A stretch of DNA of 64,000 nt from Escherichia phage MiataMamis. The DNA lies in sequence record PP925834.1; one strand, given 5' to 3'. Below are positions 56,611 to 58,619 of this stretch, piece by piece. The notes below the pieces were generated by a model, which saw nothing but the letters and a program-made list of their open reading frames with translations, did no database searches and was not told where the DNA came from. A program made the translations under genes and the position numbers. The first letter of the stretch is position 1, and each line of letters starts with the position of its first letter.

Positions 56611-57165
56611 TTACTCCCCGCTGTCAATAGCAAGACTCATTGCAATACGGTATGCCTCTTCTAATGGTAAGAGTCTCCCCCACACATCCCAACCGACATC
56701 AAACTGCCTGCCAAACAACTGCTGTGTGGTTCCGTGAGCATGACCGAACAGTTGGACTGATCCGTGAGGCTTTCTGTTCCACTTTGCAAACTGGTAATGG
56801 CTCATACAGATCAAATTCTTGTTGTGGCGAAGCTCGTAATAATCTACAACCTCATGACCGAACTCTTTCATAATTCTGACAGTCGTCCTTGTGTCATGGT
56901 TACCACGAACAAGAATAATATGTCCGTTCAACATATTTAGAACATCTGGGAGCAATTTGTTGATATTCTTATCATTAGTGCACGCAATATCTCCCAAGTG
57001 AAACACAGTGTCTGCAGGTGACACAACAGAGTTCCACTCGGCGATGATTCCCGCATTCATACTGTCAAGATTGTGATCATACTGAGATCTGTGTTTTTGA
57101 CATGAATCAAACTCCATGACCCGCTGGTGGAGAAAGTGTGTGTCGCTTGTTACAAAGTATTTCAT
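56611..57165 (-). CDS. calcineurin-like metallophosphoesterase
   Basis: Three canonical motifs in order: SDTHF (DxH), HLGDIA (GDxx), LVRGNHDT (GNHD/E); ORF-track start trimmed to the ATG at 57165 just after the kinase stop. Confidence 0.75.
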   Translation of the reverse strand: MKYFVTSDTHFLHQRVMEFDSCQKHRSQYDHNLDSMNAGIIAEWNSVVSPADTVFHLGDIACTNDKNINKLLPDVLNMLNGHIILVRGNHDTRTTVRIMKEFGHEVVDYYELRHNKNLICMSHYQFAKWNRKPHGSVQLFGHAHGTTQQLFGRQFDVGWDVWGRLLPLEEAYRIAMSLAIDSGE

Positions 57166-57172
57166 ACATTCC

Positions 57173-57583
57173 TCATTTAAGTTTAATGCAGTTTTTAAGC
57201 TGGCGTTCCATACGATCCACAACCTTGTCTGGAACATCATGAATGCTTTTATTACCGTGGCGGTTTTCAACCACGATCACGGTATAACTATACCCATGAC
57301 TGATTGCCATGTCAACATATTCCTGCACATGTTTTTCTTTTGTAAACGTATTACTTACCACGATACGGTCGTATCCCATACGCATCATATCTTCTACGTT
57401 ATCTTTGCACCATTTTGCTGCGAGTGTTACTTTACTTGCATCCCAGTTGTAATTGCCGTCATCGTCATACCAGAACATATCGTTCTCAAAATGTGGATAC
57501 AGACCTTCTAAAGATAGCGCATTTGCCAGTGTTGATTTGCCAGACCCTGGCAGACCACGCACGATATATAGCATTTTAGACAT
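57173..57583 (-). CDS. P-loop polynucleotide kinase-like protein
   Basis: Walker A GLPGSGKST near the N-terminus and Asp-rich segment (WYDDDGNY), as in the kinase domain of T4 Pnk; start set to the ATG at 57583 with RBS GGAGG (track start lies in the promoter). Confidence 0.65.
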   Translation of the reverse strand: MSKMLYIVRGLPGSGKSTLANALSLEGLYPHFENDMFWYDDDGNYNWDASKVTLAAKWCKDNVEDMMRMGYDRIVVSNTFTKEKHVQEYVDMAISHGYSYTVIVVENRHGNKSIHDVPDKVVDRMERQLKNCIKLK

Positions 57584-57611
57584 AGCAATCCTCCGTTTTA
57601 ATTTTAATGAT

Positions 57612-57640
57612 AGTATACCTAACTGTTTTGTTAATTTCAA
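57612..57640 (-). promoter_or_regulatory. sigma70-like promoter (TTGAAA-N17-TATACT) for the kinase/phosphoesterase/HTH unit
   Basis: rc of 57635-57640 is TTGAAA, rc of 57612-57617 is TATACT, 17-bp spacer; in the divergent intergenic region. Confidence 0.55.
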
Positions 57641-57683
57641 GTGTTGACACTAGGTTATTTGTGTGGCAGGATAGACTGACAAA

Positions 57684-58619
57684 ATGACAAATGAGGAACG
57701 TATGATGAAGTATTTTAATGCAGATGACCTAGTAGACAAAGGTCTTGTAACCAGTCGGTATTATCCAGATCTTGGATTAAAGATCTATAAATATGCCAGA
57801 AAAGTATTCTACAACAATCTGTGGCATTTGTCTCCGCGTTTACTGGAGTGCCGAGGTATTGTTGTTGGTAATGAGGGGAATGTTGTGGCATGGCCTTTCA
57901 CAAAAGTATTCAACTTAGGAGAAAACTCCACCAACCTACCGGACAGTAAACTTGTTACTGCGGTAGAGAAAAAGAACGGATTCCTCGGTGTGGTATCATC
58001 TCATAAAGGTGAACTATTGTTCTCAACAACCGGGTCTCTTGATTCTCCATATTGTAACCTTGCAAAGGAAACCATCCAAGAGCAATGTGGTAATTTAGAT
58101 CTTATCAAGAAGGTTATGGGCAATGAAAACATGACATTCATGTTTGAAATTTGTCACCCTTCAGATCCGCATATTGTTCAAGAAGACCATGGCGCATATT
58201 TGATAGGTTGCAGATATAATGATTCTGGAATAATGCTACCAGAAGCAGCTTTAGATGGGATTGCCAAATACCTTGGTGCAAAACGTCCTCACACTGTGCG
58301 TGAAATCCCGTTCAGCTATGCAAAAGAATTAGCTGCAGAAACAAGGGGCGAAGGGTATATGATCCGTAAGCCTTACTACCCTTATGATCTGCAGCTGAAG
58401 ATCAAGTCTCCATACTATCTGGCACGGAAGGCAGTAATGAGGGGTAAAGCTTGGAAGATTTGGGATGATGATATCTTTAAACGTGTTGACGAAGAGTTTT
58501 ACGGTATGGTAAAATTTATTCGTAGCAACTATACAGAAGATGTGTGGAATTGCTTATTAGAGCAGGAGCGTCGTGAGATACTGGACTACTATTTCCACAA
58601 CGAGGACTATATGCAATGA
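57684..58619 (+). CDS. RNA ligase-like nucleotidyltransferase
   Basis: 311 aa; motif I KxNG (VEKKNGF), motif IV EGYMIRK, motif V KIKSP in canonical order; lacks the KxDGxR signature seen in the downstream DNA ligase. Confidence 0.65.
   Translation: MTNEERMMKYFNADDLVDKGLVTSRYYPDLGLKIYKYARKVFYNNLWHLSPRLLECRGIVVGNEGNVVAWPFTKVFNLGENSTNLPDSKLVTAVEKKNGFLGVVSSHKGELLFSTTGSLDSPYCNLAKETIQEQCGNLDLIKKVMGNENMTFMFEICHPSDPHIVQEDHGAYLIGCRYNDSGIMLPEAALDGIAKYLGAKRPHTVREIPFSYAKELAAETRGEGYMIRKPYYPYDLQLKIKSPYYLARKAVMRGKAWKIWDDDIFKRVDEEFYGMVKFIRSNYTEDVWNCLLEQERREILDYYFHNEDYMQ

Follow-up and report, generated by a model that had tools for sequence, protein, structure and literature searches.

The stretch of DNA analysed here, called the window, comprises 64,000 nucleotides of Escherichia phage MiataMamis (PP925834.1) and shares 99.8% identity with phage rV5 (Vequintavirus). 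Around an intergenic region of 118 bp it carries genes for a metallophosphoesterase and a P-loop kinase on the minus strand and for an RNA ligase-like protein on the plus strand (Table 1). These three open reading frames lay where a first-pass annotation, made from the sequence alone, had placed them, and the families that it had named were recovered by the profile searches it had recommended, with Pfam matches to Metallophos/Metallophos_2, AAA_33 and RNA_lig_T4_1 and with PHROG matches. It had read the three genes as one split RNA-repair module. Comparative genomics and structure prediction support this reading of a single functional unit, but the unit extends past position 58619, where the first reading had stopped and had missed the cREC, Sir2 and MazG-like genes downstream. 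A tRNA array of seven genes (ARAGORN; Rfam; rV5 and EmilHeitz annotations) is situated 2.9 kb off, in agreement with the distance of about 3 kb estimated at first pass; we regard it as neighbouring context of the repair genes, which does not imply membership in the module.

Table 1. Features of the repair locus and its surroundings in the window.
Feature	Position	Strand	Basis
tRNA array: Pro-UGG, Met/Ile-CAU, Thr-UGU, odd Lys-UUU-like, Ser-UGA, Tyr-GUA, Arg-UCU	52859..53674	-	
Calcineurin-like metallophosphoesterase, 184 aa, rv5_gp076 orthologue	56611..57165	-	Pfam, PHROG
Small P-loop kinase, 136 aa, rv5_gp077 orthologue	57173..57583	-	AAA_33, PHROG
Sigma-70-like promoter inside kinase gene, upstream of phosphoesterase (rV5 'P80')	57315->57287	-	
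Divergent intergenic region, both ribosome-binding sites	57584..57701	.	-35 hexamers
Rnl1-like ATP-dependent RNA ligase, 305 aa, rv5_gp078 orthologue	57702..58619	+	Pfam, PHROG
cREC (cyclic-phosphate-processing receiver-like), 116 aa	58616..58966	+	Pfam, PHROG
Divergent Sir2-family protein, 253 aa, without the usual zinc-binding cysteines	58975..59736	+	Pfam SIR2
MazG-like nucleotide pyrophosphohydrolase candidate, 237 aa	59750..60463	+	phrog_671

Across six Vequintaviruses with 4-6% divergence in the flanking genes, the intergenic region hardly varies. Toward the kinase, the minus strand reads TTGAAA-17-TATACT (57640->57612, a 10/12 sigma-70 match) with the GGAGG of the kinase downstream. Toward the ligase, the plus strand carries TTGACA at 57645-57650 followed after 17 nt by CAGGAT, two bases upstream of which stands a TG (read by eye), and the Shine-Dalgarno GAGGA of the ligase at 57694-57698. 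The back-to-back -35 hexamers fit the divergent promoter region proposed at first pass and make a divergent promoter pair in 57584-57701 plausible at the level of sequence matches. The rV5 record annotates no promoter in the kinase-ligase intergenic region; its P80, inside the kinase gene, has the sequence TTGACA-17-TATAGT with 11/12 matches and is annotated in NC_011041 at 66382-66410.

Far from this locus, the open reading frame at 2836-3306 had been described as HAD-like. It does contain IDFDGT...VTSR...WIDDSP, in which DxDGT, (S/T) and DD motifs can be read by eye, but it gave no Pfam, NCBIfam or PDB sequence match, and its only PHROG match is a family of unknown function. It lies about 54 kb away and was not counted with the module.

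Enzyme families encoded at the locus

The longest open reading frame of the ligase begins at 57684. Its start is likely to be 57702 or 57705, behind the Shine-Dalgarno sequence, the ATG at 57705 being the start conserved in all relatives. The frame 57684-58619 matched RNA_lig_T4_1 (E 9e-15) and phrog_562 (E 8.4e-66). Motifs I, III, IV and V and the Rnl1-type N-subdomain Arg and Gly were invariant in 151 sequences, and in the cyanobacterial set Arg takes the place of K68, a conservative change (the reference residues for the Rnl1-type N-terminal subdomain being T4 R54, K75 and F76/77). The protein has the KxxG, motif III Glu, EG, KxK and N-terminal subdomain residues that define the Rnl1-like domain of covalent nucleotidyltransferases. 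PDB relatives of both ligase and kinase were found with family profiles and not with single-sequence phmmer, which returned nothing meaningful for either protein against PDB sequences. The solved structures nearest to the ligase are T4 Rnl1 and fungal tRNA ligase, which are dedicated tRNA repair or splicing ligases. Strict membership in the T4 RnlA family was not found (38 bits against NCBIfam TIGR02308, whose cut-off is 242). Motif I is KxNG in rV5-type ligases versus KEDG in T4, only about 65 residues follow motif V compared with about 120 in T4, and the profile alignment stops at T4 residue 250. The all-helical C-terminal domain of T4 Rnl1 (residues about 255-374) confers tRNA specificity; since this T4-type domain is absent from the ligase, tRNA specificity is not transferable from T4. 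The existing annotation 'RNA ligase 1 and tail attachment protein' is transferred from T4 RnlA/gp63, and phrog_562 is placed in the category 'tail'.

The longest frame of the kinase spans 57173-57640 on the minus strand, with the real start at the ATG at 57583 (MSKMLYIVRGLPGSGKST). It matched AAA_33 (E 1.7e-10), phrog_2071 (E 1.8e-58) and phrog_505, 'polynucleotide kinase' (E 7.6e-10), and weak P-loop matches only were returned by PADLOC. Annotations of the BASEL phages also name it 'polynucleotide kinase'. Invariant residues are G10, G15, K16 and T18 of the P-loop, D35, N78/T79 and E106-N107-R108-H109. With the P-loop G10-G15-K16-S17-T18, Asp35 in the place of the general base (about 20 residues beyond the P-loop), Arg108 in that of the phosphate-binding Arg and a T4 Pnk-like fold, the protein belongs with the kinases of the T4 Pnk/CthPnk type. 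Its best full-length PDB profile matches were Pnkp1 (4XRP, E 3.6e-5), T4 Pnk (1LY1/1LTQ, E 1.1e-4), PSTK and CthPnk (E 1e-3), and T4 Pnk was also the top Foldseek match of the AF2 model (pLDDT 83.5; TM 0.61-0.68). In both profile and structure comparisons the polynucleotide kinases came only marginally ahead of small-molecule kinases (E about 1e-4): UMP-CMP, gluconate and shikimate kinases also appear among the Foldseek matches, with similar E-values, and the family as a whole is one of AAA_33 'predicted kinases' of about 130 aa with more than 8000 database matches. We predict that the protein is an RNA 5'-OH kinase, its role in end phosphorylation being suggested by the fusions to RNA ligase described below.

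For the phosphoesterase, the longest frame (56611-57270, minus strand) begins upstream of the real start, the ATG at 57165 (MKYFVTSDTHF) annotated in rV5 and the BASEL phages. Matches to Metallophos/Metallophos_2 (E 4e-6, above the gathering cut-off) and to phrog_547, 'phosphoesterase' (E 3.8e-52), were obtained. The protein carries the DxH, GD, GNH(D/E), H and GHxH motifs of the calcineurin-like binuclear metallophosphoesterase superfamily as D8-x-H10, G58-D59, G88-N89-H90-D91, H123 and G141-H142-x-H144; all five are at least 98% conserved, as are D8, H10, D59, N89, H90, H123, H142 and H144 individually, among 54 distinct ligase-linked homologues. Its best solved relative is Aquifex aq_1665 (1XM7, E 2.4e-10), which is also the sole one and has no function on record. 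An identity with PdeM, the ligase-associated DNA-repair phosphoesterase, was rejected at 20.6 bits against an NCBIfam cut-off of 150. The first-pass annotation had contrasted the locus with T4 and likened its phosphatase to that of bacterial Pnkp. The contrast held, as the 136-aa kinase has no second domain and lacks the C-terminal HAD/DxDxT domain of T4 Pnkp. The likeness held in part: the phosphatase is indeed a separate calcineurin-type enzyme, but not one of the Pnkp/lambda-phosphatase type. CthPnkp and lambda phosphatase, themselves binuclear metallophosphoesterases, hydrolyse 2',3'-cyclic phosphates (PMC2190708), and the phage enzyme is predicted to heal RNA 2',3'-cyclic-phosphate or 3'-phosphate ends.

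Downstream, the start of cREC overlaps the ligase stop by 4 nt, and the two genes are translationally coupled. The cREC protein (Pfam PF20274 cREC_REC, E 9.6e-14; phrog_1479, E 3.8e-33) has been predicted to be a cyclic phosphodiesterase (PMC9503650, PMC7824862), and the Sir2-family protein (Pfam SIR2, E 6.9e-28; phrog_2162, E 1.5e-108) has been proposed as an analogue of Tpt1/KptA (Iyer et al. 2022, PMC9503650). The MazG-like protein matched phrog_671 (E 5.7e-22) and no Pfam or NCBIfam family; the gene is listed in the phage V5 neighbourhood of the same authors (PMC9503650). PADLOC found neither a defence-type SIR2 nor any other match for the ligase, phosphoesterase, cREC, Sir2 and MazG-like proteins.

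Linkage and fusions in phages and bacteria

Hundreds of phage relatives of the rV5-type ligase exist, and the repair genes of the window are annotated in more than 100 genomes. We surveyed 80 IMG/VR phage loci with ligases 36-49% identical to that of the window. The kinase was present in 67 of them and the phosphoesterase in 63, always on the same strand as the ligase; at least four gene orders occurred. Most copies were close to the ligase: within 3 kb, 65 loci had the kinase and 60 the phosphoesterase, i.e. 65 and 60 matches per 431 kb compared with 2 and 3 per 755 kb further out, so that the densities near the ligase are about 50-fold and about 35-fold higher, respectively. After dereplication at 60% identity, which left 30 lineages, the kinase was found in 27, the phosphoesterase in 28 and both in 24. 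The linkage of kinase, phosphoesterase and ligase is not due to chance. Kinase and ligase even form a single polypeptide in about 10 phage loci (within L031-L042 of the survey; Pfam-confirmed).

The same association was seen in 80 bacterial loci with ligase homologues. The kinase is fused to the ligase in about 70 bacterial loci, and the phosphoesterase is present in 52 of the 80, as a rule on the downstream side of the ligase at 0-2 kb. In Neisseria, Moraxella and Cardiobacterium the kinase-ligase fusion is accompanied by the phosphoesterase, and a Ro60/TROVE homologue stands immediately upstream in 31 loci of Neisseria-type bacteria. In Cyanobacteria all three domains are joined in a triple fusion of 712 aa (AAA_33-Metallophos-RNA_lig_T4_1), and RtcB lies nearby in 15 loci.

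The downstream genes are distributed differently. cREC adjoins the ligase in 9/80 phage loci, all of close relatives, and in 11 related phage loci homologues of the MazG-like gene are found at a distance of 4-7 kb from it; in sister genera the order is LIG-cREC-KIN-SIR2, with the kinase between cREC and Sir2. Only 2-3 of the 30 dereplicated phage lineages, and none of the 80 bacterial loci, have cREC and Sir2 together with the ligase. cREC, Sir2 and the MazG-like gene are lineage-specific additions, confined to rV5-like relatives.

Candidate functions and relation to known repair systems

Phage T4 repairs tRNA with Pnkp (PseT) and RNA ligase 1 (RnlA) against the PrrC anticodon nuclease. We consider it probable that the three genes of the window are central to a pathway that heals and seals RNA ends and whose likeliest role is counter-defence by tRNA repair. 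The metallophosphoesterase would remove or open the cyclic phosphate, the small P-loop kinase would phosphorylate the 5'-OH, and the ligase, adenylylated on Lys90, would join 3'-OH to 5'-phosphate, as its intact motifs and fold suggest. The logic would be that of T4 Pnkp plus Rnl1, except that the kinase stands alone and a binuclear metallophosphoesterase replaces the HAD (DxDxT) phosphatase that T4 Pnkp has fused to its kinase. In the phage of the window the core has presumably been split by inversion into two divergent transcription units. The substrates of the three proteins would be RNA rather than DNA or nucleotides, and we infer that the targets are tRNAs: host or phage-encoded tRNAs cut by anticodon nucleases or toxin RNases would be restored. 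cREC, the Zn-less Sir2 and the MazG-like protein probably broaden the range of end chemistries handled, or treat NAD/ADP-ribose by-products.

The set also resembles bacterial Pnkp-Hen1 (Clostridium thermocellum Pnkp; Capnocytophaga Pnkp1-Rnl-Hen1), which likewise has a P-loop 5'-kinase together with a metallophosphoesterase and an ATP-dependent ligase. Pnkp1 and CthPnk are among the matches of the kinase profile, and the cyanobacterial relatives share the kinase-phosphoesterase-ligase order in one polypeptide. Unlike the single polypeptide of bacterial Pnkp, the window has three genes on two strands; neither the lambda-phosphatase-type phosphoesterase nor the Rnl4-type ligase module of Pnkp was found in it, and no gene for the 3'-terminal 2'-O-methyltransferase Hen1 is listed in the rV5 annotation of the corresponding region, flanks included.

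In the close relative Bas54, transposon mutants in all these genes grew normally on E. coli K-12, and comparison with a clinical isolate (one other host) revealed no mutant depletion (log2FC +0.3 to +0.4). Insertions in the ligase orthologue were tolerated, with a mean count of about 192 versus about 0 in essential genes. This dispensability is compatible with, and no demonstration of, a conditional counter-defence role; we propose that the genes are dispensable on E. coli K-12 because that role depends on the host.

An RNA-repair reading of this locus has already been published for phage V5 (PMC9503650). Iyer, Burroughs, Anantharaman and Aravind (Iyer et al. 2022, Viruses 14:1977) described a type 2 sirtuin-centred predicted RNA-repair neighbourhood 'prototyped by Escherichia phage V5 and Proteus phage Mydo' (PMC9503650). 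It is the locus analysed here: all six genes (ligase, cREC, kinase, sirtuin, MazG and phosphoesterase) are present at 56611-60463, and the window is 99.8% identical to the published prototype V5. In that account the sirtuin is central and the phosphoesterase 'occasional', whereas in our survey the triad is the conserved core (24-28 of 30 lineages). Both that account and the present survey are computational.

The chemistry that Iyer et al. 2022 (PMC9503650) proposed, made more specific here through residues of the ligase, is NAD-dependent and yeast-like. cREC and/or the metallophosphoesterase would open the cyclic phosphate to a 2'-phosphate, which the ligase would require and retain; Sir2, acting like Tpt1/KptA, would remove it with NAD+, and MazG and the phosphoesterase would clear ADP-ribose cyclic phosphate. 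The placement of cREC, Sir2 and the MazG-like gene right behind the ligase, the overlap of cREC with the ligase stop and the gene order in sister genera speak for it. So do four ligase residues, N92 (motif I, KxNG), H157, K243 and R247, which are as invariant as the catalytic lysine in all 151 ligases. In Chaetomium Trl1-LIG, a sulfate mimicking the 2'-phosphate is bound by N150 (KENG), H227 (Glu+9), R334 (Lys+9) and R337 (Lys+12), a constellation described as unique to that clade (PMC6379707, PMC11404444). The phage residues occupy almost exactly these positions (H157 at motif III Glu+8, K243 and R247 at the second motif V Lys+8 and +12), the His and the first basic residue being shifted by one, in a comparison of linear spacing only. 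Against this chemistry, cREC and Sir2 are restricted to the few lineages noted above while kinase and phosphoesterase are almost always present, and the activities of cREC and of the Sir2 clade are themselves predicted. The rV5-type locus also differs from Trl1 (LIG-KIN-CPD, 'Rnl6') plus Tpt1 in having no 2H cyclic phosphodiesterase or Tpt1 and a ligase with a shorter C-terminal domain. Among the neighbours scanned with Pfam no 2H or PTS_2-RNA protein was found, cREC and Sir2 being present instead, and the bacterial versions that we inspected had neither a Tpt1 nor a 2H gene next to them. A small Neisseria open reading frame between ligase and phosphoesterase, considered as 2H/Tpt1, proved signal-peptide-like with no family match. 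On balance we hold the yeast-like chemistry to be unlikely. It is also doubtful that the rV5-type ligase and its phage, Neisseria-type and cyanobacterial relatives are the prokaryotic counterpart of the fungal/plant 2'-phosphate-dependent tRNA ligase. If they were, the ligase would leave a junction 2'-phosphate to be removed by the Zn-less Sir2 or, in other hosts, by bacterial KptA/Tpt1, for which we know of no substrate so far; such a pathway would be the first of the yeast type for RNA ligation in prokaryotes, and would give a sirtuin a new catalytic role.

That the kinase and phosphoesterase are instead unrelated enzymes of nucleotide metabolism (a nucleotide kinase and a nucleotidase/phosphodiesterase), merely near an RNA ligase in a nucleotide-metabolism/replication block, appears improbable. 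The size of the AAA_33 family and the small-molecule kinases in the Foldseek list would suit such enzymes, as would a phosphoesterase family with no characterised member and the nearby MazG-like and DNA ligase genes. This reading is contradicted by the kinase-ligase and kinase-phosphoesterase-ligase fusion proteins, by a linkage kept through shuffled gene orders in 24/30 lineages, and by its recurrence outside phages beside Ro60 and RtcB.

Still less probable is a DNA-end set, in which kinase and phosphoesterase would clean 5'-OH/3'-phosphate nicks for a nearby DNA ligase and the Rnl1-like enzyme would act on DNA or RNA-DNA hybrids. An ATP-dependent DNA ligase is encoded at 61090-62373 of the window, and 34/80 phage loci have one within 10 kb, T4 Pnkp works on DNA too, and the phosphoesterase does weakly match PdeM; that match is far under its cut-off, and none of the 80 bacterial loci has a DNA ligase beside it, Ro60 or RtcB being found instead. 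Finally, a ligase gene acting mainly as a tail-fibre attachment factor, like T4 gp63, has only the transferred annotation and the PHROG category in its favour, and is highly improbable given the insertions tolerated by the Bas54 orthologue, the missing T4-type C-terminal domain and the bacterial chromosomal homologues fused to kinase.

To our knowledge, tRNA repair by phages has been demonstrated essentially only for T4. The RNA-repair triad, which has relatives in Escherichia, Klebsiella, Pseudomonas and Vibrio phages and in bacterial chromosomes, looks like a second and far more widespread phage solution to the same problem. If shown to work, it would provide new enzymes, namely a stand-alone RNA 5'-kinase, a 3'-end phosphoesterase and a compact RNA ligase, and would account for the survival of many non-T4 phages in the face of anticodon nucleases and toxin RNases.

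Gene content and surroundings of the module

The first-pass annotation had placed a P-loop kinase, a phosphoesterase and an RNA ligase in one tRNA-repair module. ORF calls together with Pfam and PHROG matches bore out the three genes, their domains and the outer coordinates, and profile searches for RNA ligase, AAA_33/PNK and Metallophos matched all three families. The tRNA array indeed lies about 3 kb away. The module had been drawn too narrowly, however: its three genes stand, but the genes downstream of the ligase, encoding cREC (a cyclic-phosphate-processing receiver-like protein), a Sir2-family protein and a MazG-like protein, had been overlooked. 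For the phosphoesterase and the kinase, mechanical ORF calling put the N-terminus too far upstream; translation starts at ATG 57165 and ATG 57583, respectively, both of which follow a ribosome-binding site and are the starts in every annotated relative.

Coordinates of the module and its neighbours in the window
Feature	Position	Strand	Matches or placement
tRNA array	52859-53674		2.9 kb from module
Phosphoesterase	56611-57165	-	Metallophos E 4e-6; phrog_547 E 3.8e-52
Kinase	57173-57583	-	AAA_33 E 1.7e-10; phrog_2071 E 1.8e-58; phrog_505 'polynucleotide kinase' E 7.6e-10
Ligase	57702/57705-58619	+	RNA_lig_T4_1 E 9e-15; phrog_562 E 8.4e-66
cREC gene	58616-58966		start overlaps ligase stop; PF20274 E 9.6e-14
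Sir2-family gene	58975-59736	+	after cREC
MazG-like gene	59750-60463		after Sir2-family gene

A database search found over 100 Vequintavirus genomes, rV5, FFH2 and the BASEL phages among them, that are 98% identical to the 4.2 kb around the module. Phage rV5 is 99.8% identical to the window across 801 bases spanning the three genes, which its record labels phosphoesterase (gp076), ATPase (gp077) and RNA ligase 1 and tail attachment protein (gp078); the BASEL labels are putative phosphoesterase, polynucleotide kinase and RNA ligase. In GenBank, 18 records bearing the name 'Campylobacter phage' (e.g. MG065654, MG065666, MG065676) share 97-98% identity with E. coli rV5-like phages over 55600-59800, which suggests mislabelled or contaminant genomes. 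In the rV5 record the large terminase, immediately upstream of the spanin genes and the tRNA array, is joined from three pieces (ORF64ABC, rV5 58027-60872, window ~48930-51780, - strand), so the gene is interrupted by introns, inteins or frameshifts.

The intergenic region between kinase and ligase (57584-57701) is almost invariant among six Vequintaviruses (~98%, versus 94-96% in the coding flanks). It contains two back-to-back -35 hexamers, with a kinase-directed match TTGAAA-17-TATACT (10/12) and, read by eye, a ligase-directed match TTGACA-17-(TG)n-CAGGAT. The divergent promoter claimed at first pass is thus plausible as a prediction from sequence, and the higher conservation relative to the coding flanks suggests regulatory constraint beyond two promoters. 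One more promoter, upstream of the phosphoesterase and inside the kinase gene, is annotated in the rV5 record (57315->57287 in the window).

The array also holds a 97-nt tRNA-like gene (53106-53202, - strand), to which ARAGORN gives no type ('anticodon atcc') and which scores 37.5 bits with the Rfam tRNA model (gathering score 29). Visual inspection shows a UUU (Lys) anticodon within a loop of 7 nt, a D-type stem of 6 bp and, in the variable region, an extra stem-loop of ~30 nt; the gene folds as a cloverleaf with an extra arm (z = -4.45). Its orthologue is annotated as tRNA-Lys in BASEL and is absent from the rV5 RefSeq annotation. Since tRNA-Lys(UUU) is the classic PrrC/PARIS target, this gene could be a nuclease-evading substitute.

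Active sites of the three enzymes

The ligase has 554 homologues in the database, mostly of ~300 aa and from phage contigs of 90-150 kb. Across 151 distinct phage and bacterial sequences R51, G52, K90-x-N92-G93, E149, E217-G218, K233 and K235 are invariant, while position 68 is always Lys in the phage set and is conservatively replaced by Arg in the cyanobacterial set. R51, G52, K68 and the motif residues make up complete adenylyltransferase motifs plus the Rnl1-type N-subdomain residues. The family profile matches T4 Rnl1 (2C5U, E 1.8e-14), with an alignment limited to T4 residues 51-250; T4 Rnl1 carries a 120-residue tRNA-specificity domain after motif V, whereas the window ligase has only ~65 residues there. 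As a T4 RnlA equivalog the ligase was ruled out (38 bits against a cut-off of 242).

The kinase is a 136-aa minimal P-loop enzyme of a very large family, in which the P-loop, D35, N78/T79 and E106-N-R108-H are invariant. Its top full-length profile matches in the PDB are RNA-repair or tRNA kinases (Pnkp1, T4 Pnk, PSTK, CthPnk) and T4 Pnk is the top Foldseek match of its model, but polynucleotide kinases outscore small-molecule kinases by modest margins.

The phosphoesterase has all five binuclear-metallophosphoesterase motifs, which are at least 98% conserved among 54 ligase-linked homologues; the one relative by sequence with a solved structure is Aquifex aq_1665, an uncharacterised protein. 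The phosphatase is separate and calcineurin-type, as had been noted, but differs from bacterial Pnkp, to which it was likened, in not being of the lambda-phosphatase type. A HAD-like protein had also been pointed out at 2836-3306 (+ strand, rv5_gp021 orthologue). Its motifs are present (IDFDGT, VTSR, WIDDSP) and it is assigned to phrog_4919, of unknown function; it has no match in Pfam, NCBIfam or PDB sequences. The DxDGT motif is its sole tie to the repair module.

Linkage and fusions in phages and bacteria

Eighty IMG/VR loci whose ligases are 36-49% identical to the query were fetched, and their six-frame ORFs were searched with iterated profiles of each window protein. The kinase was present in 67 loci and the phosphoesterase in 63, with 65 and 60 matches less than 3 kb from the ligase (431 kb searched) against 2 and 3 farther away (755 kb searched). 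When loci were grouped into 30 lineages at 60% ligase identity, 27 had the kinase, 28 the phosphoesterase and 24 both. Both genes always lie on the ligase strand, nearly always within 3 kb, and in differing orders (MPE-LIG-KIN, KIN-LIG-MPE, LIG-MPE-KIN and KIN-MPE-LIG; MPE, phosphoesterase; LIG, ligase; KIN, kinase). In about ten phage loci (L031-L034, L036, L037 and L039-L042) kinase and ligase form a single polypeptide of ~430 aa, as Pfam confirms (AAA_33 at 4-103, RNA_lig_T4_1 at 172-355). No phosphoesterase homologue was found in their flanks (up to 10 kb per side, shorter at contig ends), and the L041 neighbours that were scanned include no recognisable phosphatase.

Scanning bacteria at one genome per species yielded 80 further loci (e.g. 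L091:5738-11404, L137:6726-11647). Neisseria, Moraxella, Kingella, Eikenella and Cardiobacterium encode a kinase-ligase fusion of ~495 aa followed by the same phosphoesterase family (E ~1e-50); a Ro60/TROVE homologue lies upstream of the fusion in 31 Neisseria-type loci, and a NUDIX gene is also present in 8 Neisseria/Moraxella/Cardiobacterium-type loci. Leptolyngbya-like cyanobacteria carry a 712-aa protein in the order AAA_33, Metallophos, RNA_lig_T4_1, with RtcB close by in 15 loci. We found no earlier description of these cellular versions in the literature searched.

The linkage in 24 of 30 phage lineages, the fusions and the RNA-quality-control neighbours uphold the grouping of the three enzymes into one module, linkage being the decisive evidence. 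Given fusions, order-independent linkage and such neighbours, a joint function in RNA repair is the only economical reading.

Only rV5-like relatives have the cREC, Sir2 and MazG-like genes beside the ligase; cREC and Sir2 occur in 9 of 80 phage loci, or 2-3 of the 30 lineages, and are absent from all 80 bacterial loci. Sister genera have the order LIG-cREC-KIN-SIR2-DNA ligase, so that in Vequintaviruses a local rearrangement has placed kinase and phosphoesterase, inverted, on the opposite side of the ligase. The GAGxSxxxGIPxFR and HG motifs are retained in the Sir2 protein, which appears to lack the usual zinc ribbon, as there are no cysteines from the HG to the VVFFGE motif; PADLOC defence-type SIR2 models did not match it.

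Repair chemistry

The module most probably follows a T4-like heal-and-seal pathway. The phosphoesterase would take off the 2',3'-cyclic phosphate, the kinase would add a phosphate to the 5'-OH and the ligase would join the break. Removal of 2',3'-cyclic phosphate by a metallophosphoesterase has precedents in CthPnkp and lambda phosphatase (PMC2190708). Our analysis shows the identity of the genes, the integrity of their active sites, their fold relationships, their linkage and their fusions; all substrates, the order of the steps and a tRNA/anticodon-nuclease target are inferred. The literature searched held no biochemical study of any module protein.

Yeast-like chemistry is the main alternative, and an unlikely one. 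Ligase residues N92, H157, K243 and R247 (motif I+2, Glu+8, Lys+8, Lys+12) are as invariant as the catalytic residues and recall the ligands of a 2'-phosphate mimic in the Chaetomium tRNA ligase Trl1-LIG, N150 (motif I+2), H227 (Glu+9), R334 (Lys+9) and R337 (Lys+12), a set described as unique to that clade (PMC6379707, PMC11404444); in T4 Rnl1, motif I carries Asp and counterparts of the His and Arg are lacking. These residues are consistent with the proposal of Iyer et al. (2022) that the genes form an RNA-repair system that uses NAD, with the sirtuin in the role of KptA/Tpt1 (PMC9503650), cREC being uncharacterised (PMC9503650, PMC7824862). The match is one of linear spacing only, however, and cREC and Sir2 are missing from most lineages. 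A 2'-phosphate specificity of the ligase clade seems unlikely. Minor alternatives are a role in nucleotide metabolism, processing of DNA ends together with the nearby DNA ligase, and attachment of tail fibres, each contradicted by the fusions, the Ro60/RtcB context, the distance from DNA ligases or transposon sequencing of the Vequintavirus Bas54. In the supplementary tables of the 2025 preprint that reports this sequencing, the orthologues bas54_0206-0211 tolerate insertions (mean counts ~88-406) and show no depletion (log2FC +0.1 to +0.4, one comparison), indicating that they are dispensable on K-12.

The module is real and coherent, and was already annotated and interpreted in print for this phage. 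To this our analysis adds a Trl1-like invariant constellation in the ligase clade that is worth testing, cellular versions that are fused and linked to Ro60 or RtcB, and the kinase-phosphoesterase-ligase triad, rather than the sirtuin, as the conserved core.
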